Source: Alphaproteobacteria bacterium | Lineage (GTDB): Bacteria > Pseudomonadota > Alphaproteobacteria > SP197 | Assembly (NCBI GenBank): GCA_964291415.2 | Contig: OZ219917.1 | Location: forward strand, 608,001 to 672,000 | Direction: 5' to 3' | DNA length: 64,000 nucleotides | In this document: one piece after another, positions 46,614 to 60,092 of the stretch | Position numbering within the stretch: the stretch's first letter is position 1 | How the letters are laid out: the number at the start of each line of letters is the position of its first letter | Notes under the pieces: model-generated | What the model was told of the DNA's origin: nothing | Seen by the model: the letters and a program-made list of their open reading frames with translations, nothing else | Database searches by the model: none | Made by a program: the position numbers and the translations under genes

Positions 46614-47681
46614 ATGAAGTTCAGTCTTTCGATCGATCTTGCCCGCGACAACCCGTCGGTCGACATGCGGGATGTCGCACGCCACGCCATGGACATGGTT
46701 CAGATGGCCGAGTCGGGGGGATTCGAGATTGTCTGGGCTGCCGAACACCATGCGATCGAGATGACGATCGCGCCCAACCCCTTCCAGCTGCTGGCGTGGT
46801 TCGGCGCCAACACCGACCAGATCCGCCTCGGCATCGCGGTGGTCCAGGCTCCCTACTGGCACCCGATCAAGGTCGCCGGAGAGGTCGGCCTGCTCGATCT
46901 CATGTCGGGCGGACGGGTGGAGTTCGGCATCGGCCGCGGCGCCTACCAGCGTGAATTCGACCGCATGATGGGAGGCATGGACCAGCACAAGGGGGTCGCC
47001 TACATGCAGGAGATGCTGCCGGTGCTCAAGGGCCTGTGGGCTGGAGACCACGAGCACCAGGGCGAGTTCTGGTCATTTCCCTCGGCAACCGCCTGTCCCA
47101 AGCCCCTGCAGAAGCCCCACCCTCCCCTGTGGGTCGCGGCACGTCATCCCTCGACCTACGACTGGGCCCTCTCCCAGGGGTGCAACATCATGTCCTGGGC
47201 GCTGACCCGTCCCTTCAGCGAGGTCGAGAAGTACCGGCAGCAGTTCGAGGATGCGCTGGCGAGGGGTCCGGGCATTCCGCGGCCGCGCTTCCTGACGATG
47301 CGCCATGCCGCCGTCTACCAGGACCGTGAGCGTGGCTGGCAGCCCTTTGTCGAGGCGGTGCAGAGGAGTGGCGTGCAGTTCGAGAACCTGTTCAAGCAGC
47401 TCGGAGAGGTGAAGAACGGCTTTGTCGAGGCGGTCGATCTTGCCTCGCTCGACAATGTCGCCGAATACGATCCCGAAATGCTGCGCACCAATCTGGTCTT
47501 CGGTACGCCTGACGAGGTGATTGCCAAACTACGCCGCTACGAGGCCCTCGGTGTCGACAATTTCCTCTATCGCGTGACCGGTCCGACGTTCGAATTGCAG
47601 AAGTCCTCGTTGCGCCTTTTCATCGACGAGGTCATGCCGGCCTTCCCGAACTCGCGCGCCTTCATGAAGGCGGCGGAATAG
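46614..47681 (+). CDS. LLM class (luciferase-like) flavin-dependent oxidoreductase
   Basis: VWAAEHH, IRLG, HPIKVAGE..LLD.MSGGRVEFGIGRG, PKPLQKPHPPLWVA, GTPDEV. Confidence 0.92.
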   Translation: MKFSLSIDLARDNPSVDMRDVARHAMDMVQMAESGGFEIVWAAEHHAIEMTIAPNPFQLLAWFGANTDQIRLGIAVVQAPYWHPIKVAGEVGLLDLMSGGRVEFGIGRGAYQREFDRMMGGMDQHKGVAYMQEMLPVLKGLWAGDHEHQGEFWSFPSATACPKPLQKPHPPLWVAARHPSTYDWALSQGCNIMSWALTRPFSEVEKYRQQFEDALARGPGIPRPRFLTMRHAAVYQDRERGWQPFVEAVQRSGVQFENLFKQLGEVKNGFVEAVDLASLDNVAEYDPEMLRTNLVFGTPDEVIAKLRRYEALGVDNFLYRVTGPTFELQKSSLRLFIDEVMPAFPNSRAFMKAAE

Positions 47682-47760
47682 GGATCCGGCCTTGCGATTC
47701 GGCGACAGCCGTCCCACCTAACGGACCAGCATCAGACACGAGACCAGGAAGGCGGCGATC

Positions 47761-48675
47761 ATGGCGTTCATCATCCAGGGAGGAGAGTCGCAGGCTGCGC
47801 CGGAAGCGGGCGGTGGCGACGTCAAGGACGTGACCACAGCGACGTTCCAGCAGGATGTCCTGCTGGCGTCCCGCGAAAAACCGGTCATCGTCGATCTGTG
47901 GGCGCCCTGGTGCGGGCCGTGCAAGCAGATCGCTCCCATTCTCGAAAAAGTGGTCCGGGCGGCCGCCGGCAAGGTCACCCTGGTGAAGATCAACATTGAC
48001 GAGGAGCCGCAGATCGCCCAGGCCCTGAGGGTGCAGTCGATTCCGGCGGTGTTCGCCTTCGATCAGGGGCAGCCGGTGGACGGCTTCGTCGGGGTCCAGC
48101 CGGAGAGCCAGATCAAGGCCTTCGTCGAACGCCTGGTCGGCAACATCGGACCAAGCGCCGTGGAGCAGGCTCTCGCCCAGGCGGATGAAGCCCTGGAAGG
48201 GGGTTCCGCCGAGCAGGCTGCAGCCATCTACCGCCAGGTCCTGACGCGCGAGACCGACAACGTCGATGCGGCCGCGGGTCTGTGCCGCTCGCTCATTGTC
48301 CTGGGACGCACAGGTGAGGTGACGGACCTGCTCGACAGTCTTGACGACGCCGTTGCCGACGACGAACGCATCAAGGGTGTCAGGGCCCAGCTGGAACTCC
48401 TGGACGGCGCCACCGGTGACATGGCGGCACTCGAGGCGAGAGTCGCGGCCGATGGCAAGGACTTCGAGGCGCGGCTCGAACTGGCGCGGGCGCTTGCCGC
48501 CGTGGACCGGCGCGAGGACGCGGTCGATCAGCTGATCGCCATCATTGCTCTCAAGCGCGACTGGAACGACGAGGCGGCACGCAAGGAGCTCCTGAAGTTC
48601 TTCGAGGCCTGGGGACCGACCGATCAGGCGGCCGTCGACGGCCGCCGCAAGCTGTCGTCGGCCTGGTTCAGCTAG
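47761..48675 (+). CDS. ybbN: Thioredoxin-TPR co-chaperone YbbN/CnoX
   Basis: WAPWCGPCK thioredoxin domain plus TPR C-terminus WNDEAARKELLKFFEAWG...GRRKLSS. Confidence 0.92.
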   Translation: MAFIIQGGESQAAPEAGGGDVKDVTTATFQQDVLLASREKPVIVDLWAPWCGPCKQIAPILEKVVRAAAGKVTLVKINIDEEPQIAQALRVQSIPAVFAFDQGQPVDGFVGVQPESQIKAFVERLVGNIGPSAVEQALAQADEALEGGSAEQAAAIYRQVLTRETDNVDAAAGLCRSLIVLGRTGEVTDLLDSLDDAVADDERIKGVRAQLELLDGATGDMAALEARVAADGKDFEARLELARALAAVDRREDAVDQLIAIIALKRDWNDEAARKELLKFFEAWGPTDQAAVDGRRKLSSAWFS

Positions 48676-48693
48676 GGTTGCGGTCGTGGCGTG

Positions 48694-49362
48694 ATGGCGG
48701 GCCTGCCGTACTACCGCACCATCGACGGACTGCCGTCGACCATTCCCGTCTTTCCCCTCCCCGGGGCTCTCCTGCTGCCGCGTGGCACCCTGCCGCTCAA
48801 CATCTTCGAACCCCGCTATGTTTCCATGGTCGAGGATGCCCTGAAGTCCGACGGCCGCGTGATCGGCATGATCCAGCCCGACGAAGAGGCGGATGATGTC
48901 GGATCGGCCCATTGCTTTGCCATCGGATGCGCCGGACGCATCATCCAGTTCACCGAAACCGACGACGGCCGCTACCTGATCACGCTGATCGGACTGGCGC
49001 GCTACCGCGTGGCGCGGGAACTCGCCCTTGCCGCCGGCGCCTACCGTCTGGTCGAAGCCGACTACACGGACTTCGCCGACGACATGAAGCCCGTTTCCGC
49101 CACCGACATGATCGAACGCACCACCCTCATCGCCCACCTCAAGCAGTTTTTTCACAAGAAGCAGATCGAGGCGGACTGGGACGCCATCGGCAAGGCGAAC
49201 GACGAAACGCTGGTGACGGCGCTCTCCATGGTCTGCCCCTTCAGTCCCCTGGAGAAGCAGGCCCTGCTCGAAGCCGGGGACTTTCTCGAGCGCGCCAGCA
49301 TCCTCACCACCCTGCTCGAGATCGGCAGCCGCGAAGACGACGACAGCCCCGTGCAGCAGTGA
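48694..49362 (+). CDS. LON peptidase substrate-binding domain protein (Lon-N)
   Basis: IPVFPLPGALLLPRG.LPLNIFEPRY, IGMIQP, GCAGRI, DGRYLITL.G, EKQALLEA. Confidence 0.92.
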   Translation: MAGLPYYRTIDGLPSTIPVFPLPGALLLPRGTLPLNIFEPRYVSMVEDALKSDGRVIGMIQPDEEADDVGSAHCFAIGCAGRIIQFTETDDGRYLITLIGLARYRVARELALAAGAYRLVEADYTDFADDMKPVSATDMIERTTLIAHLKQFFHKKQIEADWDAIGKANDETLVTALSMVCPFSPLEKQALLEAGDFLERASILTTLLEIGSREDDDSPVQQ

Positions 49363-49365
49363 CGC
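49251..49365 (+). repeat. Lon-N 3'-end repeat, copy 1 (within the intact gene)
   Basis: Source sequence for copies at 51704, 55346 and 56065. Confidence 0.9.
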
Positions 49366-49409
49366 ACCAAGGGGAAACGAGGCCAGGCCCGCTCGGGAGA
49401 CCGGCATGA

Positions 49410-49560
49410 CGTTGACTGCGGATGGCCGCGTCAGGAGTTCATTCGCGCCATCGGGTTGCGAGCGTGCCCGTCCTGTCGAAAAGAAGGTTACATTGAGAAC
49501 TTCAAGGCGCGGCCTCGCGACGAACTCCTCGACGGGGAGATGTTCTCCATCCTGTGGTGT
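49410..49560 (+). mobile_element. IS3-family transposase fragment
   Basis: GYIENFKARPRDELLDGEMF resembles the IS3-family core NGYIESFNxRLRDELLNGEIF; an IS-end-like GCCCCGCCCTCTTGAAGTGGTCC lies near 49811. Confidence 0.6.
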
Positions 49561-49929
49561 CAAGGCACGCCGCGCGACTGCATGACAGCCTGGGACAACG
49601 CCAGCCCCGCAGACGAACCTCATGCCAGGCTTGGCCGCCCGGTTTCGCTCCACTGCGCCGATCGGCCAGAATTGCCGAGAAGTCGTCGACACACCAGGGT
49701 TCACAATGAACCGCGAGAGTTGGTCAATGGGACACCGGCCTGTGTCAGAGCACAACGTGGCCGGGGTCACCGGTAATGTCGTGCGGCGCTTTTTCGAACC
49801 GGGGCCGTTCGCCCCGCCCTCTTGAAGTGGTCCGGAGCGGGAGTTGGAATGAACCGCCGAACCGGAACCGCGCAGGATCCGTCTGATGGAGTGGCTCGGA
49901 TGAGCGAATCCGCCGAACGAAGACCGGCC

Positions 49930-50949
49930 ATGGACGTGAGAACGTTCGTTCGCAACCTGCCCAAGACCGAACTCCACCTGCACCTGGAGGGCTCGCTCGA
50001 GCCCGAGATGCTCATGCGTCTGGCTGCAAGGAACAGGGTCGAGATCCCGTTCCGTTCTGTGGAGGAGATTCGGGCCGCCTACCGCTTCGCGGAACTCCAG
50101 GAATTCCTCGACATCTATTACCAGGGCATGAACGTGTTGCGCGAGGAGGAGGACTTCTACGACCTCACCATGGCCTACCTGAAGCGCGCTGCGGCCGATG
50201 GCGCCGTTCACGTCGAAGTGTTCTACGACCCGCAGGGGCACACCGTGCGCGGCGTCCCCATTGCGACCGTCACGGACGGCATCCTGGCTGCGCTCGCCGA
50301 TGGACGCGGCGAACTCGGCATCACCTCGTTGCTGATCCTCTGCGTTCTGCGCCATCTGCCCGAGGACGACGGCTTCGCCACCTTCCGCCAGGCCGAACCC
50401 TGGATCGCAGACGGCCGAATCGCCGGTCTCGGCCTCGATTCGACCGAGAAGGGTAATCCGCCCGGCAAGTTCCTGCGCCTTTACGCCGCGGCCCGAGAAG
50501 CCGGGCTCAAGCTTGTTGCTCATGCCGGCGAGGAGGGCCCGGCTGCCTATGTCGCCGATGCGGTGGATGTGCTGGGAGTCGATCGCGTGGATCACGGCAA
50601 CCGTGCACTCGAGGACCCAATGCTGGTGCGGCGTCTGGTCAAACGGGGCATGACGCTGACGGTCTGTCCGCTCTCCAATCTCCGTCTGTGCGGTGTGACA
50701 GACATGAGGCATCATCCGCTGAAGCGCATGCTCGACGCGGGACTCAAGGTCACCGTCAACTCCGACGATCCGTCCTATTTCGGCGGGTATCTGCTGGACA
50801 ACTACGTGGCTGTGGCCGAGGCTCTGGAACTTGGACGGCGTGACCTGGTCACCTTGATCCGCAACTCCATCGAGGGCTCGTTCATGGAAGATCCGGTCAA
50901 GCAGTCTCATCTGCGTCGGATCGAGCGTGTCGTCGAAACGGGGGAATGA
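49930..50949 (+). CDS. Adenine/adenosine deaminase
   Basis: LPKTELHLHLEGSLEPE, LQEFLDIYY, AHAGEEGP, RVDHG, CPLSN, NSDDPSYF. Confidence 0.93.
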   Translation: MDVRTFVRNLPKTELHLHLEGSLEPEMLMRLAARNRVEIPFRSVEEIRAAYRFAELQEFLDIYYQGMNVLREEEDFYDLTMAYLKRAAADGAVHVEVFYDPQGHTVRGVPIATVTDGILAALADGRGELGITSLLILCVLRHLPEDDGFATFRQAEPWIADGRIAGLGLDSTEKGNPPGKFLRLYAAAREAGLKLVAHAGEEGPAAYVADAVDVLGVDRVDHGNRALEDPMLVRRLVKRGMTLTVCPLSNLRLCGVTDMRHHPLKRMLDAGLKVTVNSDDPSYFGGYLLDNYVAVAEALELGRRDLVTLIRNSIEGSFMEDPVKQSHLRRIERVVETGE

Positions 50950-51142
50950 TCCGGCCGCGCCACATCGCGATTGCCGTTCCGTTGGCGACCTCGGCGTCAT
51001 CAGCCTCGACGGGCCGCTGCTCCGCATCGACAAACAGACAGCCAGGATGGTCCAAGGCGGCGCCACCGGCTACATAGTTGTGTTCTGATCGATGCAGGCG
51101 AAGAACCTCGACAACGGCCCGCTGGATCGCGGTGAGGGGCAT
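50950..51142 (-). pseudogene. Internally deleted nucleotidyltransferase-type (AbiEii-like) toxin remnant
   Basis: MPLTAIQRAVVEVL...YVAGGAAL (GG-x-AL motif) joined directly to a C-terminal-looking GCLFVD segment; coupled to the upstream ORF by TAATG. Confidence 0.5.
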
Positions 51143-51492
51143 TACCGTGCCAACCTGACGAGCCTGCGCCCCAGGCCATAGGCTTCCGAGTTTCCCCGGT
51201 GCATGAGCGCGGTGCCGATCACGGCGGCATCGGCGAGCCCGGCCCTCTCCGGATCGACGTCAATGTTGTCGAGGCATTGTGCTCGGTACTTCTTGTACGC
51301 CTTTGCGATCAGCATACGCGCTTCCCTGACTGCCTCTGATTCCGAACCTTCGCGCAACTGGGCGGCATAGGCCTTCAGTTTGTCGACCTGACTGGCGGGA
51401 ACATGAACCTCCACGCGCTTCAAGCCAGCCCGACGACGACGGTCGCGGGACCGATAGACCCGTTCATTCACGGATGCATTCGCAGATGCCAT
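51142..51492 (-). CDS. Small putative DNA-binding antitoxin-like protein
   Basis: ERVYRSRDRRRRAGLKRVEVHVP N-terminus; an inverted repeat lies upstream. Confidence 0.6.
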   Translation of the reverse strand: MASANASVNERVYRSRDRRRRAGLKRVEVHVPASQVDKLKAYAAQLREGSESEAVREARMLIAKAYKKYRAQCLDNIDVDPERAGLADAAVIGTALMHRGNSEAYGLGRRLVRLAR

Positions 51493-51538
51493 TGCAGTGT
51501 CCCTGCCGCTTGTTGCCGGACACATTATCACAGCCATG

Positions 51539-51568
51539 ACCGGTAACATAATTCAATTTGTTGCCGGT
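51539..51568. promoter_or_regulatory. Imperfect inverted repeat, candidate autoregulatory operator
   Basis: ACCGGTAACA-N10-TGTTGCCGGT, with a third half-site TGTTGCCGG at 51511. Confidence 0.5.
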
Positions 51569-51703
51569 TACAGGATTGTCTCTCCCGTTCACTCCGTGTC
51601 AATTCAAACAGCGGTTCTTGACCGATGGAAGCCTGGCCACACGGTAAACCGCGTATCCAGCGAGGCTCATTCCATGCCCGCCTGGCTCACGGGGCGCACG
51701 TCA

Positions 51704-51818
51704 GGAGAAACAGGCCCTGCTCGAAGCCGGGGACTTTCTCGAGCGCGCCGGCATCCTCACCACCCTGCTCGAGATCGGCAGCCGCGAAGACGACGACAAC
51801 CCTGTGCGGCAGTGACGC
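51704..51818 (+). repeat. Lon-N 3'-end repeat, copy 2
   Basis: 115 bp with about 5 mismatches to 49251-49365. Confidence 0.95.
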
Positions 51819-51962
51819 GTCAAGCGGGATTGCAGTCGATCCGGAGTCCTGCATGGCCGGAGGCAAAGCGGCAAGCGGCCGCACGCGCACCATCGCCCGG
51901 TTCGGCTCCCGGCATCGGACTCCATGCTCGCCACGGCGCGGTGCGCGTGACCAGCGGGCTCG

Positions 51963-52290
51963 CTACCCGTTCCTTCGACGTTTCACGTCACCCTCGTGGC
52001 AAGCGGGCGCTTCCAGGAGACGCGCACAGAGTCTCGAGCGATCGTTCACCATGTGCAGAATCGGCTGATCCAGCCCGTTGGCGCCGGCGTCGGCCACCGC
52101 CTTGTCAAACGCAGCCGGGACCGTCTCGGCCATGGTCTTCCCCGCAGCGAGGACGTCAGCGGGGGACAGGCGTACCTGTGTGGCAAGTCTCACCCAATGG
52201 CGTGAACGGACATCTTCGAGCCCTTGGTTTCCGCCGAACGCGGTTGCCGTCTTCAGCCGCACCGGATCGAAGCCGTCATGCAGTTCGCAG
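51963..52290 (-). pseudogene. HipA-family toxin, C-terminal remnant
   Basis: FDPVRLKTATAFGG...LEDVRSRHWVRLA.QVRL...GLDQPIL resembles HipA C-termini; no N-terminus present. Confidence 0.5.
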
Positions 52291-52398
52291 GCAAGGAGGA
52301 CCGCGGTCCGGTTCCGTTATGAAGACGCGCTCGATCCCGAGGCGCACCAGTCCTCGCTCGTGAACGCCTCCCTGATCGGCACCATCACGGAATCCCGA

Positions 52399-53700
52399 TC
52401 ACTCCGGGTCATCATGTCGAGATGACGCCACGCCACTTTCGTCGAGAATTCCCTTCGCCACATCCTCGGCCGTGCCGACCGCGCCCTCCATCTGGCCGAT
52501 GAAGCGTTCCGCGTATTCCGCTCCCGCCCAGTGGATCCGGCCAACGGCCGGACGCAGCGCCGGGCCGTAGGCGGTCCAGCAACCGGTGGCAAGGAAGCTG
52601 TTGCACCCCCTGCTCCATGGCTCCGCCGCCCAGTCGACGGCGTGGAAGCAGACGACCTCCCGGGCGGGCGGCCCCAGCAGGACGGCAAGGTCGTCGAGAA
52701 CCGCCGCACGGCGCTCCTCGGCCGGCAGGGTGGCGATCTCACGGGACCGGACGATGGAGGACAGGCCGCCAATGCAGGCAAGATCCCCCTCGTCTCCCTC
52801 GTCCCAGGCGACGACGTTTTCCGACGAGACGGCTCTCATGCCCCGCGCCTCGCGCCAGAAGGGCCTTGCATAGAGCGCCGCGAACGCCACCTTGCCCCGT
52901 ATGGGCATGCGCTGCGTCAGGTAATCGCGCTGCGCCGGCATGGGAGGATCATAAGCGAGCCGCCCGGCGAGCACCGGCGGCAGGGCGGCGACGGCGTGGC
53001 GGGCCCTCACCTCTCCTCTCGCCGAATGGGCCGTCACCCCGCGTGCGTCCTGGCACAGGCGATGGACCGGCGAATTCAGGCGGACGTGGCCTGCGAGGTC
53101 ACGGGCGAGGCGGTCCGTGAGGGCATGGGCTCCGCCCGCGAAGAGTTCGCTGTCGTGGGCCGGACCGTCGAGACCCATGATCGAGGCCAGTCCTCCGTTC
53201 GATTTCAGGTAGGTCAAGGCATGCAACAGGGAGCACTCGGCAGGATCGGGGAGGAAGCCGATCAGGAGTCCGGCAAGGGTCCGGGCCGCACTCCCTCCCA
53301 CCTCTCGGTCGAGCCAGGTCGCCAGGGTCTCGCGGTCCCAGGAGGCGGCCTGCGCGGCCCGCCACGGAGCTTCCAGCGGCACGCAGTCGGCGAGATGATC
53401 GATGTGGCGGACGGCTGCCACCAGGCGATCGTCCACCACATCCTCCTCGCGGAAGGTCGTGGACACCCGCACCCCGATGCCGAGTTCCCGGGCCAGCGCC
53501 TTGATGCGATCCTGACCCGGTCCCGTCCAGCGGCCGCCGAGCTGGATCGCGCGGCCGCCGCGTTCCATGCCGAAGATACGTCCTCCGGTCCGCTCGCGAG
53601 CCTCCAGAACCACCACGGACTGCCCGCCTTCCACCAGCCGTCGGGCGGCCACGAGGCCTGCCAGGCCGGCGCCGACGATCACCGTGTCGCAGATCGTCAT
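52399..53700 (-). CDS. Flavin monoamine oxidase family protein
   Basis: VGAGLAGL, LEARERTGGR, GGRWTGPGQ, W..EPWSRGC, GRIHWAGAE, MEGAV. Confidence 0.9.
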   Translation of the reverse strand: MTICDTVIVGAGLAGLVAARRLVEGGQSVVVLEARERTGGRIFGMERGGRAIQLGGRWTGPGQDRIKALARELGIGVRVSTTFREEDVVDDRLVAAVRHIDHLADCVPLEAPWRAAQAASWDRETLATWLDREVGGSAARTLAGLLIGFLPDPAECSLLHALTYLKSNGGLASIMGLDGPAHDSELFAGGAHALTDRLARDLAGHVRLNSPVHRLCQDARGVTAHSARGEVRARHAVAALPPVLAGRLAYDPPMPAQRDYLTQRMPIRGKVAFAALYARPFWREARGMRAVSSENVVAWDEGDEGDLACIGGLSSIVRSREIATLPAEERRAAVLDDLAVLLGPPAREVVCFHAVDWAAEPWSRGCNSFLATGCWTAYGPALRPAVGRIHWAGAEYAERFIGQMEGAVGTAEDVAKGILDESGVASSRHDDPE

Positions 53701-54644
53701 GCCGGTGCGATCCGCGGACCGACACCGGTGCGCTCGACGATCAGGCCGTAGTGCTCCGTTCGCCGGTGAGCCGCGAAATTGAAGACCGTGTCCCGGCTGT
53801 GCTTCCCCGCATCGAGATCGCAGTCATGGGCAACGAGTTCGTCCGCGAAGGTGCGGCACATGGCGACGATCTCTCCCGAGGGCGCGATGATCGCCGACTG
53901 TCCGATCATGTCGTAACCCTCCTCATGTCCTGCCTTGGCCACACCGACGACCCAGCAGGCGTTCTGGTAGGCACCCGCCTGCATCACCAGGTGATTGTGG
54001 AACGGCGCCAATGCCGTGGCCTCGGGCGGTTCTGCGTCCAGTCCCACCGGCGTGTTGTAGCCGAGCACGATCATGTCGGCGCCCTGGAGAGCCATGACCC
54101 TGTAGGTCTCGGGCCAGCGCCGGTCGTTGCAGATGCACATGCCGATCAGACCACCGAAGGCTGGAAAGACCGGAAACCCGAGATTGCCGACCTCGAAGTA
54201 GCGCTTCTCGAGATGCTGGCCGGGATTGTCCGAAATCGGCTCCGCCGTCCCCGGCAGGTGGACCTTGCGGTACTTGCCGATGATCCCGCCCGAATTGTCG
54301 ACGAGAATGGACGTGTTGTAGCGGTGGACACCACCGTTCTCCCGGGCACGTTCCGCGTAGCCGAGGTGGAAGGCGATGCCCAGCTTTCCCGCCTCGTCGA
54401 AGAGGCGCTTGGTTTCGGCGCCCGGCATCTCGTCCTCGAACCAGGCGTTGATCTCCTCTTCGTCCTCGATCAGCCAGCGCGGAAAGAAGGTCGTCAGCGC
54501 GAGCTCTGGAAAGACCACAAGGTCGCAGGCAGCATCCGCGGCCTGCCGCATCAGCGCGATCAGGCGATCGACGACCGCGCGGCGGCTGTCGAGGCGCGCC
54601 ACGGGACCCATCTGCGCAGCTCCAACCCTGACGATGCGACTCAT
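53697..54644 (-). CDS. N-carbamoyl-D-amino-acid hydrolase (nitrilase superfamily)
   Basis: FPELALTTFFPRW, GKYRKVHLPG, HLEKRYF, CICNDRRWPE, GYNTP. Confidence 0.92.
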   Translation of the reverse strand: MSRIVRVGAAQMGPVARLDSRRAVVDRLIALMRQAADAACDLVVFPELALTTFFPRWLIEDEEEINAWFEDEMPGAETKRLFDEAGKLGIAFHLGYAERARENGGVHRYNTSILVDNSGGIIGKYRKVHLPGTAEPISDNPGQHLEKRYFEVGNLGFPVFPAFGGLIGMCICNDRRWPETYRVMALQGADMIVLGYNTPVGLDAEPPEATALAPFHNHLVMQAGAYQNACWVVGVAKAGHEEGYDMIGQSAIIAPSGEIVAMCRTFADELVAHDCDLDAGKHSRDTVFNFAAHRRTEHYGLIVERTGVGPRIAPA

Positions 54645-54762
54645 GACGGACCTCTCGTTGCCGACGGTGGATCGGGCGTCCGCAGTCTGCCAGCACCCTT
54701 GCCTTCTCGACAATGTCCTCGCCTCGAGAGATCACCGTGATCGGCCATTCCCGGTTCTAGCC

Positions 54763-55005
54763 GGCGCCACCGGCAGCGCAGTTGTGCTCCGATCGATGAG
54801 GGCGAAGAATCTCGGCAACGGGCTGCTGATCGAGGTGCGGGGTGTTACCGCGTCAAGCCGGCACCCGGGCCATGGGCTTTCGAGTTCCCCCGCGGTGCCG
54901 ATCACGGCGGCATCGGCGAGCCCGGCCCTCTCGGGATCGACGTCAACGGTGTCGAGGCTGTACGCCTTCGCGATCAGCATCCGCGCTTCCTTGACTGCCT
55001 CCGAC
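54763..55005 (-). pseudogene. Degraded second copy of the 51059-51340 antitoxin/toxin junction
   Basis: Shares REARMLIAKAY...DVDPERAGLADAAVIGTA and the toxin 5' sequence, with several short deletions. Confidence 0.85.
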
Positions 55006-55129
55006 CCATGATCCGGCGATCGGCAACCACCACAAGAAGCGCCGTCACGTCAGTTCGTCCCTGGTGGCATCGATATCGACGGGACCGTGATCCTCACTCA
55101 ACTGAAGTCGGTGATGATCGTCAACGGGA

Positions 55130-55312
55130 GGTCCAGGGCAAAAGGGTGCGCAGCACCAGACCAAGCTCGGAACGGGACTTGCCATGTTCAGTGGCGACGA
55201 CCCACTGTCGTCAGACTCCCGCTTTGCGGGCGAGCTCGGCCTGGCTCAGCTTTGGCTTGCGGCGTCTGTTGCGGATGATGAGACCGATGTCCAAGGGGGC
55301 TCGGACTTTCAT
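55130..55312 (-). pseudogene. HipB-like XRE-family HTH antitoxin with internal stop
   Basis: Manual translation MKVRAPLDIGLIIRNRRRKPKLSQAELARKAGV*RQWVVATEHGKSRSELGLVLRTL; absent from the ORF track. Confidence 0.75.
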
Positions 55313-55345
55313 GAGGTCTCAGGTGTCGTCGAACGCATTCAAACC

Positions 55346-55402
55346 GCATCCTCACCACCCTGTTCGCAATCGGCGGCCGGGAAGACGACGACAGTCCCGT
55401 GC
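55346..55402 (+). repeat. Lon-N 3'-end repeat, copy 3
   Basis: GCATCCTCACCACCCTG...GAAGACGACGACAGTCCCGTGC; about 6 mismatches over 57 bp. Confidence 0.85.
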
Positions 55403-55581
55403 GTCACCCACCCGTGAGGGGGTTCCTGTTATCACAAGGCACATAGACTGTGTTCACGATGTCCACGACTCCATGGACCTGGACGCGTCCGTACCGATTG
55501 GCGCGCCAAGGTCTCGGTTTCACTCGGGCGATCGATTGGCATGCACTGCAAACGCCGTGCGTCAGACCGCGGTCACCCTGA

Positions 55582-55950
55582 TCAGGTACCGTCGCGGAAG
55601 TTGAGTTCGACCGAAACGCCGTCGGGATCCTCGATGAAGATCTGCTTCGTCGGCGTATTGGGCACGTCATAGGTCTCGAAGGCGATCCCCTGCTCGCCGA
55701 GCCGGACCTTCATCGCCTCGAATCCTTTCACAGCAAAGGCGACGTGATCGACCGCGCTCATGCCGTCTCGAGGCGTGTCGGTCACGCTGACATGAACAAT
55801 CGGCTCGCCGCTTGCGTAAAGCCATGCGCCGGGGCTGTCGAACGACGGCCGCCAGCCCTCCTCGAGACCCAGCACGCCACAGTAGAAGTCGCGGCAACGC
55901 TCGAGATTGCTGGTGCTGATGTTGATGTGGTCGACGCCGTGGACGGTCAT
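55582..55950 (-). CDS. VOC (glyoxalase) family protein
   Basis: VDHINI, FYCGVLGL, RPSFDSPGAWL, VDHVAF, QIFIEDPDGVSVEL. Confidence 0.9.
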   Translation of the reverse strand: MTVHGVDHINISTSNLERCRDFYCGVLGLEEGWRPSFDSPGAWLYASGEPIVHVSVTDTPRDGMSAVDHVAFAVKGFEAMKVRLGEQGIAFETYDVPNTPTKQIFIEDPDGVSVELNFRDGT

Positions 55951-56064
55951 GGACGCGAGCCTCCCGCTCTGCAGCCTTGAACCAGACAAGTCGACTCTGC
56001 AACAGTCTCCTGAGCCGGGCAAGGAGCGCCCAATCGAGCCCGTGTTCGGCGCCGCGATCGAGCC

Positions 56065-56175
56065 GCATCCACACCATGCTGCTCGAGAACGGCAGCCTGG
56101 AAGACAACCACATCCCAAACCGGCAGTGACACGGGGAACGAAGACGGATACGCCCCAGGAAACCAGCATGACATG
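56065..56175 (+). repeat. Lon-N 3'-end repeat, copy 4 (most diverged, includes post-stop sequence)
   Basis: GCATCCACACCATGCTGCTCGAGAACGGCAGCCTGGAAGAC...GCAGTGAC then GGGGAACGA...ACCAGCATGAC, aligning to about 49298-49410. Confidence 0.75.
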
Positions 56176-56285
56176 AAGGCCCTCAATCGGAAGGCAGACC
56201 CTTGCCAACCTCCCGTCGTGGTCAATCTGGACCTTGCAGGGCTTTGCTGATATATCCCAATGTCATATCTTTCTCGGAGGCTTCC

Positions 56286-56534
56286 ATGCCCAGAACAGCC
56301 AAACTCTTCTGGTCGGGCCGATCTCAGGCGGTGCGGCTTCCCAAGGAGTTCCGGATGAAGGGCGCCGAAGTCCGCATCCGCAGGCAGGGCGCGGCGGTGG
56401 TTCTCGAACCCGTCGCGTCGGACTGGGAATGGCTTGACGCCATTGCTGGCGAGTTTTCCAGTGACTTCTTCGCGGCGGGGCGCAACCAGCCGGAACTTCC
56501 ATCTCGAACGCAGCTTGACAGCGTTTTCGACTGA
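56286..56534 (+). CDS. vapB: VapB antitoxin (AbrB/MazE/SpoVT fold)
   Basis: TAKLFWSGRSQAVRLPKEFR; GGAGG RBS. Confidence 0.93.
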   Translation: MPRTAKLFWSGRSQAVRLPKEFRMKGAEVRIRRQGAAVVLEPVASDWEWLDAIAGEFSSDFFAAGRNQPELPSRTQLDSVFD

Positions 56535-56944
56535 TGCGCTACCTATTCGATACCAACACCTGCATTGCTCTGCTCAACGACACATCGCCGCTGCTTCGCA
56601 AGCGCCTGCGTCACCTTGCGCCCGCGGATATCGGACTGCCTGCCCCGGTCGCCTATGAACTCTACTACGGTGCCCACAAGAGCCGACATGCGGAGCGCAA
56701 TCTCGCCTTGCTTGACCGGCTGGAGTTCGAGATCGTTCCATTCGACGCTGGCGATGCGCGCACAGCAGGTGCAGTGCGCAGCGAGCTTGAAGCGAAGGGG
56801 CTTCCGATTGGCCCGTACGATCTGCTGATCGCCGGGCAGGCCCGTGCCCGGAAACTGGTGCTGGTTACCGCCAACAGCCGGGAATTCGAACGGGTCGAAG
56901 GACTGGCTTGCGAAGACTGGACGGTTTCCGGCGCAGGCGCGTAA
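56534..56944 (+). CDS. vapC: VapC PIN-domain toxin
   Basis: YLFDTNTCI, ELYYGA, IGPYDLLIAGQA, LVTANSREFERV.GL..EDW; TGATG coupling. Confidence 0.95.
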   Translation: MRYLFDTNTCIALLNDTSPLLRKRLRHLAPADIGLPAPVAYELYYGAHKSRHAERNLALLDRLEFEIVPFDAGDARTAGAVRSELEAKGLPIGPYDLLIAGQARARKLVLVTANSREFERVEGLACEDWTVSGAGA

Positions 56945-57227
56945 CCTCGCAGCCGGCCTGACCGGACGGTGGCCGCCAATACCCACTTTCAGGTTCGGTC
57001 TCCATCCTGCTGCACCGCCGGCCATCAGCGACATGCTCACGTTCGGCCCGATGTGGCAGGGCGTTGCCAGGGCCTCCTTTCGCCATTGCGGCCAAGTAGA
57101 CGCGTCGAGTAGATATCTCTGGATCACGGCTGACTGACGGATACAGGCAAACAGCGCATCCGGCGGGGTCGGTTCAAGGAGGAGACCACATGGACATCAC
57201 GGGACATGTCTGCGGGAGGCAATTGCC

Positions 57228-57419
57228 ATGAGTGGAACCGACGTCGATCCCCGGCTTCTCGAGATCCTGGTCTGCCCGCTGACCAAGGGACCGCTCACAC
57301 TGGATCGCGAACGCCAGGAACTGGTGAGTGCCGAAGCGGGTCTCGCCTACCCCATCCGGGATGGCATCCCGATCATGCTGGTCGACGAGGCGCGCCGTCT
57401 CGATGAGGAGGAATCGTGA
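57228..57419 (+). CDS. Trm112 family protein (UPF0434)
   Basis: [17 protein letters not shown]...[16 protein letters not shown]. Confidence 0.95.
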
Positions 57420-57793
57420 AGGGCGAAGCCCATCCCAGCCGCCATCGGCCCCTGGAGATTCGCCTGAAGTCGCGGCAGAAGGCTCTCGAGATCGACTTCG
57501 ACGACGGGACCTCCGTCTCGTTGCCGGCCGAACTGCTGCGTGTCGAAAGCCCCTCGGCCGAGGTCCAGGGACACGGCGCGGGCCAGAAGAAGGCCGTTCC
57601 CGGGCGCCGCCATGTCGGCATCATGTCGGTGGAGCCCGTCGGCAACTACGCCATACGCATCACCTTCGACGATCTGCACGATACCGGCATCTACTCGTGG
57701 AACTATCTCCACGAACTCGGCTGCAACCAGGAGAGCGTCTGGCAGGCCTACCTCGACCGCCTCGACGCCGAGGGTTTGTCACGGGACCCTTGA
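57416..57793 (+). CDS. DUF971 (gamma-butyrobetaine hydroxylase N-terminal-like) protein
   Basis: [39 protein letters not shown]. Confidence 0.92.
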
Positions 57794-57803
57794 TTTGGAG
57801 GTC

Positions 57804-57821
57804 GGGGGCATTACTGCCCCC
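57804..57821. terminator. Hairpin between convergent genes
   Basis: GGGGGCA-TTAC-TGCCCCC. Confidence 0.5.
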
Positions 57822-57837
57822 TTGTGCCGCTGTTCTG

Positions 57838-58530
57838 TCAGAGCGCCAACGAAGCGGCCATGGCGACCAGGAAACTCTCCACTTCGGCTCTGGCCCGTTG
57901 GGGGTCCCCGGACGTGATGGCATCCGCAATCTTCGACAGACGGTCGTGGAAATGCTTGCGGACAATGTTGGCCACCGGCGCCTGGTCACTCCCGCCGTCA
58001 AACTTGTTCGCACGACGCGCGGCCACGATCTGATCAAAGGTCCAGCACAGGAAGTCGTTGCCCGCCTCAACGTAGTAGAGGCGTGAGAACCCGTAGATGT
58101 CCTCCTTGAACTGGAGCCAGGTAGGCGCCGCCAGGATGCGTTCCAGCGCCGCCTCCAGGTCCTTGCAGAACTGTGGCGTCGGCGCTTCGGCGGCACGTGC
58201 CGCAACGGACGGCTCGACGAGCAGCCGCGCCTCCAGGGTCTCGTGGAAGCCGTGCGAGCGCTCGGGCGACATGTGGACCGCAGCATCTGCCAGCTCGATG
58301 ATCTGGGGCGCACGCTCGGACAGATAGGTGCCGCTGCCGATCTTGCGTTCAACCAGCCCTTCCTTCTGGAGCATGAGAAGCGCATCGCGCACCTGGGTGC
58401 GGGAGGCTCCCCTCATTTCCGCCAGCTTGCGCTCGTTGGGCAGTCGCTGGCCGGGCAGGATGTCGCCCGAGCGCAGGAGATCGCGGATCTCCCGATAAAC
58501 CCGGTCGGTCACATCAAAGGCAATCGACAA
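57838..58530 (-). CDS. GntR/FadR family transcriptional regulator
   Basis: PGQRLPNERKLA...SRTQVRDAL..L..EGLV....GSGTY and FCD-type EARLLVEP; TTG start inferred from AAAGGA. Confidence 0.88.
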   Translation of the reverse strand: MSIAFDVTDRVYREIRDLLRSGDILPGQRLPNERKLAEMRGASRTQVRDALLMLQKEGLVERKIGSGTYLSERAPQIIELADAAVHMSPERSHGFHETLEARLLVEPSVAARAAEAPTPQFCKDLEAALERILAAPTWLQFKEDIYGFSRLYYVEAGNDFLCWTFDQIVAARRANKFDGGSDQAPVANIVRKHFHDRLSKIADAITSGDPQRARAEVESFLVAMAASLAL

Positions 58531-58615
58531 GACGTTTCCTTTCGAATGGCCCCCCGGTCGCGCGAAACCGTACGCCTTTCTGGAGGGCAGCGTCACGTGG
58601 CGACGAACACGGGAA

Positions 58616-58686
58616 TTGACAAATGGTTGTGCATCTGCGCCAATTGGTCAACCGATTTCCACTCCTGGAAAATCCGGTTGACCAAT
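58616..58686. promoter_or_regulatory. Divergent promoter with two FadR-type operator boxes
   Basis: TTGACA at 58616; ATTGGTCAACCG (58643-58654) and its exact reverse complement (58675-58686). Confidence 0.65.
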
Positions 58687-58724
58687 GCCTGGTCAGCAGG
58701 CTGTCAGAACACACGGAGGAAACG

Positions 58725-60092
58725 ATGAAGACATCTCGGCGAGGAGCCCTTGTCAGGGCGGCCAAGCTGGTCACCGCATCGTCGGTGGCCCTTGCCGTCA
58801 GTACCACGATTGCTGCGGCCGACTTTGCGTGGGACCAGCTTTCGGGAGAGTCGATCACGGTCATGATGCCGGAACATCCCGTCACGGACGGCGTGCGTGT
58901 GGTGCTCGACCGGTTCGAGGCCGACACCGGCATCGACGTCACCCTGCAGACCATGGCCGAAGATCTCTACTTCGACCGCATGGAAGTGGCGCTGCGCGGC
59001 TCGGGCGGCAACTCGCAGATGGACGTCTACTTCCTGCCCATGGACTCCACGGCCTACACACAGCACACCAATGGCCTCGTCCATTCCCTGCAGGACTTCA
59101 TCGACAGCCCTGATCTCACGGCTCCGGACTACAATCTGGATGACATCCCGGCAGGCTTCCTTGATGCAACCAGGTACGACATCGACGGCCGTTGGGAGTA
59201 CCACGGTATCCCGGCATCGTTCGAGACCTACATCCTGTTCGCCAACATGGATCACGTGAACCAGTATCTCGACGGCCAGATGCCGACGACGATGGCAGAA
59301 CTGATCGCTGCGGCGCGCGAGGTGAAGGAGGAGAGCGGAGGCGCCGTCGCGGGCGCCGTGCTGCGTGGCATCCGGTCGGACACGCTGATCGACACCGTCA
59401 CCGGTTTCGTGAACAACTCGGTCGGCGCGGCAGACCGCTCCGCTCCCCAAAACGTCTGGTTCGACGGCGACTGGTCGAAGCCGAAGATGAACGATCCCGA
59501 CATCGTGCGGGGCCTCGCGAACTATGCGGAGCTGATGAAAGCCGGTCCCGTCAACATCCAGGCCATGGACTGGCCCGACGCTTCGCAGTTCTTCATGGCG
59601 GGCGGTGCGGCGTTCTTCATTGACGCAAGCCTTTTCGCGCCCGGCTTCGAGAACCCGGACGACAGCCTTGTCGCCGGCAAGATCGCTTACTCCGTCATTC
59701 CCGTCGACAACGCCGCAGGAGAGCCCTACACGGCCCACTGGCAATGGGGTTTCGGAATTCCGCAAAACGCCGCATCACCCGAGGCTGGCTGGCTCTTCAT
59801 CCAGTACATGTCGAACACCGACAACGCGACCGCCATCGGCAAGCTGCACGGCGGCGCCCCGCGCCTGTCGACGTGGCAGGATCCCGAGTACGCGGCGAGC
59901 TTCCCGCAGTCCTACGTGGAAGCCGTGGCAGCGGCCATGCCGAACTCGCAGACTTCCGTCGTTCAGCGTGCCGGCTGGAGCGAGTTTGCGCTGCGCATCG
60001 TTGATGTGATCCAGGACATCTACGGCGGTGCGGACCCTGCTGAGGCCGGCGCCTCGGCTCAGGCCGACTTCGAGACAATGCTCGCGAACTGA
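58725..60092 (+). CDS. Carbohydrate-type (family 1) ABC substrate-binding protein
   Basis: Signal peptide, FEADTGIDV, PTTMAEL..AA, W.FGIP...PEAGWLFIQY; GGAGGA RBS. Confidence 0.88.
   Translation: MKTSRRGALVRAAKLVTASSVALAVSTTIAAADFAWDQLSGESITVMMPEHPVTDGVRVVLDRFEADTGIDVTLQTMAEDLYFDRMEVALRGSGGNSQMDVYFLPMDSTAYTQHTNGLVHSLQDFIDSPDLTAPDYNLDDIPAGFLDATRYDIDGRWEYHGIPASFETYILFANMDHVNQYLDGQMPTTMAELIAAAREVKEESGGAVAGAVLRGIRSDTLIDTVTGFVNNSVGAADRSAPQNVWFDGDWSKPKMNDPDIVRGLANYAELMKAGPVNIQAMDWPDASQFFMAGGAAFFIDASLFAPGFENPDDSLVAGKIAYSVIPVDNAAGEPYTAHWQWGFGIPQNAASPEAGWLFIQYMSNTDNATAIGKLHGGAPRLSTWQDPEYAASFPQSYVEAVAAAMPNSQTSVVQRAGWSEFALRIVDVIQDIYGGADPAEAGASAQADFETMLAN

Follow-up and report, generated by a model that had tools for sequence, protein, structure and literature searches.

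An array of displaced Lon-N gene ends and small cargo units between Lon-N and trm112 in an alphaproteobacterial genome

Repeated Lon-N ends and the units between them

The 64,000-nt stretch of DNA analyzed here (positions 608,001 to 672,000 of contig OZ219917.1; hereafter the window) belongs to an Alphaproteobacteria bacterium (GenBank assembly GCA_964291415.2, labeled G000), whose genome is metagenome-derived, spans 4.44 Mb in 5 contigs, and is rated 100% complete with 8.99% estimated contamination. It contains an intact Lon-N gene, which encodes a stand-alone LON substrate-binding domain and lies between a ybbN-like gene on the left and trm112 on the right. The interval separating Lon-N from trm112 is occupied by an array in which displaced copies of the Lon-N 3' end alternate with small cargo genes (Table 1). 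The relatives with which it is compared, labeled G001-G020, are uncultured Alphaproteobacteria, all represented by metagenome-assembled genomes.

Self-comparison of positions 47000-59000 reveals four copies of the Lon-N 3' end, all in direct orientation, with a repeated part of 57-158 nt. This bears out a first, sequence-only reading of the window, in which the gene end had been seen to recur directly downstream. Copy 1 is the end of the live gene itself. Copy 2, which is 94% identical to copy 1 over 124 nt without gaps and 86% over 158 nt with gaps (E 1e-40), is a displaced tail; its start, like all tail starts given below, is counted as a position in the Lon-N gene. Copy 3 is a short internal piece, while copy 4 is the oldest displaced tail in the G000 array. 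As the same reading had noticed, a post-stop trailer of ~46 nt ending in GCATG follows copies 1, 2, and 4 in the alignment. When 49251-49415 was compared with the whole G000 genome, E values below 1e-10 were obtained only for copies 1-3, the next best match having an E of 0.0075. A 23-nt Lon-N core, searched with up to 4 mismatches, was found at four genome sites, all of them the four array copies, and nowhere else.

The DNA between these copies falls into four units. Unit 1 runs from the trailer through a ~420-nt spacer to a gene of the adenosine/adenine deaminase family, a toxin gene stump, and a ribbon-helix-helix (RHH)-type gene. The spacer had been read as an IS3 piece, a label that could not be confirmed: its frame resembles the C-terminal part of rve-type transposases, but neither Pfam (E up to 10) nor NCBIfam gave a match, and no longer homologue turned up when one was sought. 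Approximately 320 nt of this spacer are missing in G006. Half of the toxin-antitoxin (TA) pair proposed ahead of copy 2 survives, namely the RHH-type gene, with a weak Pfam match, but its toxin partner is a ~30-codon stump only. The upstream side of the RHH gene always adjoins a Lon-N copy beginning at position 561, and in G019 the gene is preceded by a different one.

Unit 2 comprises a trailer, a hipA C-terminal remnant, an amine oxidase gene, a CN-hydrolase gene, a second RHH remnant, a hipA N-terminal stump, and a hipB remnant. It is a hipBA unit whose toxin gene has been split by a nested insertion, and the oxidase-hydrolase pair is therefore not bounded by Lon-N copies. No intact HipA kinase or helix-turn-helix (HTH) HipB was found in the window, only remnants; the pair is intact in G019 and G014. 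Unit 3 holds a vicinal oxygen chelate (VOC)/glyoxalase-family gene, and unit 4, after its trailer, holds vapB-vapC, the only intact TA module of the G000 array. The latter has a type II layout, in which the gene of an AbrB/MazE-fold antitoxin overlaps the PIN-domain gene behind it, and its VapC equivalog match is below the cut-off. The assignments made from sequence at first sight to deaminase, amine oxidase, CN-hydrolase, VOC, VapB plus VapC, and HipA/HipB remnants were all confirmed. Cargo lies on both strands, with the deaminase gene and vapBC on the plus strand and the RHH, hipBA, oxidase, hydrolase, and VOC genes on the minus strand. By analogy, it is plausible that the TA modules stabilize the array.

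Table 1. Features of the Lon-N locus (window coordinates) and of parallel loci elsewhere in G000 (coordinates with a C label)
Feature	Coordinates	Strand	Basis or remarks
ybbN-like thioredoxin/TPR gene, conserved left flank	47761..48675	+	Pfam Thioredoxin and TPR_20; syntenic in every relative examined
Lon-N gene, intact, 223 aa	48691..49362	+	PF02190, E 9e-30
Copy 1, live Lon-N 3' end (112 nt coding) with ~46-nt deaminase-type trailer	49251..49408	+	Self-comparison, alignment
Spacer of unit 1	49406..49821		No family match (see text)
Adenosine/adenine deaminase family gene	49822..50949	+	PF00962, E 1e-90; NF006850, 499.5 bits (cut-off 419)
Toxin gene 5' stump, overlapping the RHH stop, remainder deleted	51049..51142	-	Homology with G019 and second copy ends here; no family match
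RHH-type antitoxin-like gene	51142..51549	-	PF01402, E 0.008 (below cut-off); 89% aa identity to G019 homologue
Copy 2, displaced Lon-N tail from position 561 with hipA-type trailer	51704..51855	+	Self-comparison, alignment
hipA C-terminal remnant, ~100 aa	52005..52295	-	tblastn with G019/G014 HipA, E 5e-33
Flavin amine oxidase gene, nested in broken hipA	52399..53700	-	PF01593, E 6e-46
CN-hydrolase gene (carbamoylase/amidase-like), nested in broken hipA	53697..54713	-	PF00795, E 6e-55; all NCBIfam matches below cut-off
Second, diverged RHH module remnant	54753..55004	-	75% to 51049-51339
hipA N-terminal stump and hipB remnant	54980..55342	-	tblastn, E 1e-6 and 5e-27
Copy 3, 57-nt Lon-N piece at hipB end of hipBA unit, without stop or trailer	55346..55402	+	51/57, E 1e-12
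VOC/glyoxalase-family gene	55582..55950	-	PF00903, E 1e-10
Copy 4, displaced tail with vapBC-type trailer	56055..56172	+	72% over 125 nt, E 1.5e-13
vapB-vapC pair, intact	56286..56944	+	PF04014, PF01850; NF040493, 74.4 bits (cut-off 60)
trm112, conserved right flank	57228..57419	+	PF03966, E 7e-19
3-Hydroxyacyl-CoA dehydrogenase gene	C1:128001-146000		Tail copy 163 nt, one extra
NnrU gene	C1:128001-146000		Tail copy 246 nt, three extra
Ferritin-like gene	C1:128001-146000		Tail copy 160 nt, one extra
Major facilitator superfamily (MFS) transporter gene	C4:562001-570000		Tail copy 155 nt; PIN_3 and FitA-like RHH pair between
Rieske gene	C2:1072001-1080000		Tail copy 112 nt
PhyH dioxygenase gene	C1:814001-822000		Tail copy 296 nt

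Arrays of the relatives and their junctions

The Lon-N loci of 20 relatives were fetched and mapped, and Lon-N is full length in all 20. In nine of them, trm112 lies 24-84 nt after Lon-N, and in G020 the distance is 862 nt. A wider sample taken outside the close clade gave 16-194 nt in 28 of 30 public loci, 862 nt in one, and a contig that stops before trm112 in the last. Since Lon-N and trm112 are nearly adjacent in these outgroups, the empty site is ancestral. Among the ten close species (Lon-N 91-98% identical), the gap measures 0.7-9.6 kb. Further matches to Lon-N positions 582-644 in other genera proved to be chance, as they sit inside open reading frames (ORFs) resembling Asp/Glu racemases and methyltransferases. 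At the right edge, trm112 is single-copy in every locus, and no trm112 fragment was found in any array. The ~180-370 nt ahead of trm112 (57049-57227 in the window) are kept within the close clade and missing in the outgroups, and this stretch is a candidate for the oldest insert. Its sequence does not resemble Lon-N significantly; the idea of one more Lon-N copy, with an internal deletion, next to trm112 was considered and rejected, the local alignment score of 11 being equaled in 236 of 300 shuffles.

The ten close arrays all differ, each with a distinct subset or order of common blocks. Those of G004, G001, and G016 hold vapBC only, while that of G013 is 0.73 kb long with no assigned content. 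G005 has a hipA fragment and a DUF932 gene; G010 has hipA with an internal deletion, hipB, and VOC; G012 has a hipA remnant, oxidase, hydrolase, a 34-nt Lon-N piece, and vapBC. The array of G014, whose layout is also present in two metagenome contigs, is composed of an endonuclease/exonuclease/phosphatase (EEP) gene, a Lon-N tail (from 601), and intact hipBA. That of G006 reads deaminase, tail (from 343), hipA remnant, oxidase, hydrolase, VOC, tail (from 609), vapB. Finally, G019 reads intact hipBA, 34-nt piece, EEP, RHH, tail (from 561), deaminase, tail (from 353), oxidase, hydrolase, VOC, tail (from 597), with no vapBC. Partial Lon-N tails of 34-330 nt are thus carried by four of the ten species, and copy 3 of G000 is the counterpart by position of the 34-nt pieces in G012 and G019. 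In a tree of the flanks, G010 is basal and the other groups are G000+G006+G019, G014+G013, and G012+G004+G001+G005.

The displaced copies can be traced to live gene ends in other species. Copy 2 and the DNA that follows it align with the live Lon-N end and downstream DNA of G012, and copy 4 with vapBC aligns with the live Lon-N end and vapBC of G004, which means that a displaced copy is a former live end. Consistent with this, block sets of relatives are nested or different, with break points inside Lon-N copies, and the hipA-type trailer of copy 2 is also found after the live gene in G012 and G019. The idea that the Lon-N 3' end has served repeatedly as an insertion site therefore stands. Moreover, trailer sequence types sort by the downstream cargo and not by genome, and the trailers of copies 1 and 2 are only ~60% alike, while their coding parts are 96% alike. 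Since the trailer goes with the cargo, the incoming DNA would have brought its own tail and trailer, exchange taking place inside the coding tail.

The opposite side of each unit is equally characteristic, every cargo type keeping its own start of Lon-N homology across genomes and contexts. The RHH junction starts at 561 (G000 and G019, with unlike neighbors), the hipB junction at ~606 (G000, G012, and G019), the VOC junction at ~597 (G000, G006, and G019), the deaminase junction at 343-353 (G006 and G019), and the EEP junction at 601 (G014). The RHH junction is the most telling, for it comes after the deaminase in G000, and after EEP and ahead of the deaminase unit in G019. That it is kept in such different surroundings implies that units move independently, with their right-hand junction included.

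Copies within one genome also exchange sequence. Over the 112 coding nt, copies 1 and 2 of G000 show 5 differences, vs. 7-13 when compared with their counterparts in G006, G019, and G012, and they have in common a variant found in no other copy. Private variants are likewise common to the live end of G019 and its deaminase-side copy, and to the two copies of G014. This closeness within genomes, together with the private variants, shows that gene conversion has occurred in G000, G019, and G014. As a consequence, the rise of divergence with distance from the live gene, pointed out by the sequence-only reading, exists in G000 but is partly homogenization, and it is absent from G019, where the copies are 85%, 79%, 90%, and 85% identical to the G000 gene in order of distance. 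The related proposal that the newest block lies nearest to the gene is only partly true overall: the RHH block has changed sides of the deaminase between G000 and G019, the oxidase and hydrolase genes are nested in hipA, and the low divergence of copies 1 and 2 is in part due to gene conversion.

Could all this go back to a single ancient tandem duplication of the Lon-N end that took place in the clade ancestor, followed only by vertical descent, decay, and differential deletion? Array content does track descent in part, G000, G006, and G019 being sisters with most blocks in common; cargo DNA is 88-93% identical, near the 95% of the flanks, and many differences are plain deletions. We nevertheless regard this scenario as improbable. 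At least five cargo-to-tail junctions have different tail lengths, the units between tails are mutually unrelated, and vapBC and the oxidase-hydrolase pair are patchy on the flank tree. The opposite placement of the RHH unit, the contrast between coding parts and trailers of copies 1 and 2, and the same anatomy at other genes (see below) also speak against it. It is more improbable still that the array is an artifact of assembling a metagenome-derived genome, a concern raised by the 5 contigs and the estimated contamination of G000, since arrays with partial tails are also present in the independently assembled genomes of four other species and in two metagenome contigs, and the copies differ in sequence and length. 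In addition, the short contigs of one public run reach into all 30 bins and are interrupted within copies 1 and 2, which is what genuine repeats would cause.

Parallel loci in G000 and the search for recombinases

The layout is not special to Lon-N, since it recurs at no fewer than five other genes of G000. Self-comparison of the genome, after removal of two tandem-paralogue clusters, yielded 33 local direct-repeat pairs. With crude gene calls, 8 of these are clear cases of a gene 3' end with an ORF-less copy downstream, vs. 1 clear 5' case, and three further local repeat pairs are tRNA-linked. In the six pairs inspected, the duplicated stretch extends from 80-290 nt before the stop to 3-35 nt after it (Table 1), with no recombinase at any of them. 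Across the inspected loci, the copies lie 1-6 kb downstream, those of the MFS, Rieske, and PhyH genes being at 1.4-1.9 kb. At these three loci the cargo is again small: a PIN_3 and FitA-like RHH pair, a YdaS-like HTH ORF, and an ORF of no assigned family. The tail copy of the MFS gene is 504 nt long in G012 and has another spacing in G006.

The locus at C1:128001-146000 combines three such genes, with cargo that includes an EamA transporter gene, a VOC gene, a REase-ARP-like gene, and an AAA_16 ATPase gene. One of its NnrU tail copies lies 8 nt from the dehydrogenase tail copy, as expected if NnrU is cargo turned target. The dehydrogenase and NnrU genes occupy separate loci in relatives, which argues that NnrU came as cargo and that its own tail then became a target.

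Two other regions of G000 contain repeats of a different kind. At C4:880001-889000, a tRNA-Val(CAC) island presents the classical picture: 48 nt of the tRNA 3' end are duplicated, and an integrase fragment and a hipBA pair are present. The HipA encoded there shares just 26% identity with that of the Lon-N locus of G019. At C4:630001-642000, a YhgA-like (Transposase_31) gene precedes two short ORFs, both of them repeats of its C-terminal DUF4351 domain, with an IstB-like ATPase gene and a further hipA nearby.

Nothing resembling a recombinase was found in the arrays by several searches. Pfam analysis of the window ORFs, of 34 chosen cargo ORFs, and of 147 ORFs of at least 85 aa from nine relatives' arrays returned cargo families only and no recombinase. 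When 17 tyrosine recombinases of G000 were used as tblastn queries against 12 arrays, the best E was 0.014. In G019, G014, G006, G005, and G010, none of the 150 PF00589 matches listed, of 196, falls in the array. Overall, no integrase, integrase fragment, or transposase was found in the 12 arrays, nor an integrase in the Lon-N loci of 22 genomes of the genus. G000 itself has 21 PF00589 and 3 resolvase-family matches, all outside the array, the nearest PF00589 match being 46 kb upstream. The sequence-only reading had postulated a protein-coding att site with a recombinase lost or acting in trans, and had proposed that relatives be compared for variable cargo and for an integrase beside the repeat. 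The variable cargo is there, but no integrase accompanies it, and the left edges of the tails differ by cargo (343-353, 561, and 597-608), so that a dedicated site or integrase finds no support.

Tyrosine recombinase genes are nevertheless numerous in these genomes. One is present in the window at 2318-2791 on the minus strand (open frame of 426 aa), and no link to the array was seen. Besides the 21 PF00589 matches of G000, each of the five relatives above has 23-62. In these genomes, many of the matches form adjacent pairs or trios ~1.1 kb apart and some recur in several identical copies, a pattern suggestive of recombinase-in-trio or similar transposon-like elements. The EEP gene of G019 and G014 was considered as a driver of the arrays but found no support: no tail repeats flank the 9 copies fetched, and at one locus only distant paralogue repeats were found. 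The EEP family is dispersed in seven genomes (G014, G019, G012, G010, G011, G013, and G006) at 59-73% aa identity, with up to four copies in G014, and is absent from G000.

The TA modules had also invited comparison with sedentary integrons. Sedentary chromosomal integrons are arrays of short cargo units rich in TA modules, and the cargo of the Lon-N array is just that. A platform of this type would consist of attC-type sites, imperfect palindromes folded as single strands, served by an IntI-type integrase, and we consider it very improbable here. No integrase lies beside the array, and no attC-like fold was detected in six folds of three copies on both strands, which were no better than shuffled sequences (z -0.93 to +1.63). 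Furthermore, cargo is on both strands, where integron cassettes mostly keep to one orientation, and the repeat is a piece of the neighboring gene. The analogy was consequently set aside.

Possible capture by host recombination and kinship with known arrays

Our favored, though tentative, reading is that the array in the gap between Lon-N and trm112 was built by 3'-end displacement, with the host's own homologous recombination as the driving force, much as at the orphan arrays of rhs and type VI secretion system (T6SS) loci. A unit would consist of a Lon-N tail, the ~46-nt trailer, and one to three cargo genes, either TA modules or small enzymes. The anatomy, the variation among relatives, the lack of a recombinase in cis, and the gene conversion are observed, whereas we infer that gain itself, beyond loss and homogenization, would also proceed by homologous recombination. 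Incoming tail-trailer-cargo DNA would recombine within the last ~70-330 nt of the resident Lon-N; the incoming tail would become the live gene end, and the old tail, with all that lies behind it, would move downstream and survive there only as a dead copy. Once flanked by tails at either end, a unit could use RecA-type recombination (ends-in or Campbell) to enter any genome of the clade, and could be looped out or swapped by the same homologous route. With sequence homologous to the target at both of its ends, such a unit would not need a recombinase of its own, an illegitimate join being required only at the first making of each cargo-to-tail junction. The array would later be blurred by deletions, by the insertion nested in hipA, and by gene conversion among the tails. 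We favor homologous recombination because it fits the missing recombinases, the variable and cargo-specific tail lengths, the many unrelated targets, the gene conversion, and the reshuffled order of units.

Several observations weigh against this reading. Homology-facilitated illegitimate recombination is reported to be rare (PMC5361080; PMC3240628). Single-marker searches of G000 gave no ComEC (PF03772), Ku (PF02735), GTA_TIM (PF13547), or VirB4 (PF03135). No strain-level gain or loss was caught, and the contigs of public runs gave no clean joint; joints such as 48987>57244 and 51507>52007 have short sides or unknown letters between them and are probably those of other organisms. Local repeats are biased toward gene 3' ends, which a symmetric homology mechanism without selection does not predict. 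Among the five junction types, three or four have their starts crowded into a stretch of ~12 nt (597-608), and two of these have a similar ~20-nt left flank, which resembles a preferred site. Likewise, all four trailer types end within ~20 nt of one point near GCATG, which is site-like. Finally, no cargo gene is cut at a cargo-to-tail junction, although random fragment ends would often cut genes.

Some of these features, namely the clustered tail starts, the trailer ends, the whole cargo genes, and the 3' bias, favor the main rival explanation: site-specific elements that restored the Lon-N 3' end accumulated in tandem and lost their integrases, in the manner of cis-mobilizable elements (CIMEs), or were mobilized in trans by a tyrosine recombinase encoded elsewhere. 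We hold this to be a real possibility, if on the whole a doubtful one. Direct repeats of a target gene 3' end are a hallmark of such elements and flank the units here, the tRNA-Val island shows that G000 has a decaying textbook case, and there are 21-62 PF00589 matches per genome. Tandem build-up with decayed members is described for CIMEs (PMC5704250) and for tycheposon islands (10.1101/2020.12.28.424599). However, no integrase or fragment was found in the 12 arrays or at the five other inspected loci, nor any second att-like core copy elsewhere in G000. Tail starts vary by up to 265 nt in Lon-N and 350 nt in the MFS gene, and at least six unrelated target genes would require as many specificities. 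In addition, the tail of a cargo gene, NnrU, became the next target.

A more general proposal goes beyond displacement driven by homologous recombination at this gap. In this uncultured alphaproteobacterial genus, the tail of an ordinary gene would act as a portable arm of homology, and small blocks framed by two such tails would be cassettes. The host's own homologous recombination would put them in, take them out, and pass them from species to species, not only at Lon-N but also at several further genes. The result would be a recombinase-free counterpart of integrons that preferentially retains addictive TA modules. In this full form we judge the proposal rather unlikely. Integration hotspots without mobile-element genes are common in bacterial genomes, and gene gain at them is poorly understood. 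The Lon-N case offers a clear empty ancestral site, differing arrays in ten species, legible junctions, and at least five parallel loci in one genome. It thereby makes a question testable: is gene-tail homology alone enough for cassette capture and exchange, or does an unseen recombinase act in trans? In a literature search, which was not made by gene name, arrays of this type were not seen described for Lon-N or for any other housekeeping gene. Among displacement or accretion arrays, which are known as such, this one lies at a housekeeping gene and has TA and enzyme cargo, and its pattern recurs at several genes of one genome.

Known systems share parts of this anatomy. The elements e14 and phage 21 insert in icd and carry a replacement 3' end for this protein-coding gene, with a prophage integrase, while complex class 1 integrons, which involve an ISCR element, have a duplicated 3'-conserved segment, Campbell-type insertion leading to a partial direct duplication. 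Both resemble the Lon-N array in their replacement or duplicated 3' end, but the integrase or ISCR was not found here. CIMEs and other remnants of integrative and conjugative or integrative and mobilizable elements come closer, with direct repeats of the target end, tandem build-up, members without integration genes, and TA cargo. However, CIMEs derive from and are moved by elements with a matching integrase and a fixed att core, neither of which was found at Lon-N (PMC5704250). In tycheposon islands, new arrivals push older ones inward, partial target copies remain, and the hosts lack the usual transfer machinery, as at Lon-N; unlike at Lon-N, the targets are tRNA genes, and integrases or fragments are present (10.1101/2020.12.28.424599).

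The closest likeness in our favored reading is to the orphan arrays of rhs, cdi, and T6SS loci. Those of rhs and T6SS are explained by one-sided homologous plus illegitimate recombination (PMC5361080). Behind the intact gene at these loci stands a row of displaced partial 3' ends, all with cargo downstream of them, the newest tending to lie nearest to the live gene; there is no dedicated recombinase, and homologous reshuffling occurs, all of which is seen or proposed at Lon-N. The displaced ends there encode variable toxin domains, with the cognate immunity gene as cargo, whereas the Lon-N tail is conserved and housekeeping, its function left unchanged. The Lon-N array differs further in that its cargo of TA modules and small enzymes is unrelated to the target and in that the pattern is repeated at several ordinary genes. 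C-terminal displacement, known from polymorphic toxin loci, would in this way be extended to housekeeping genes and TA cargo.

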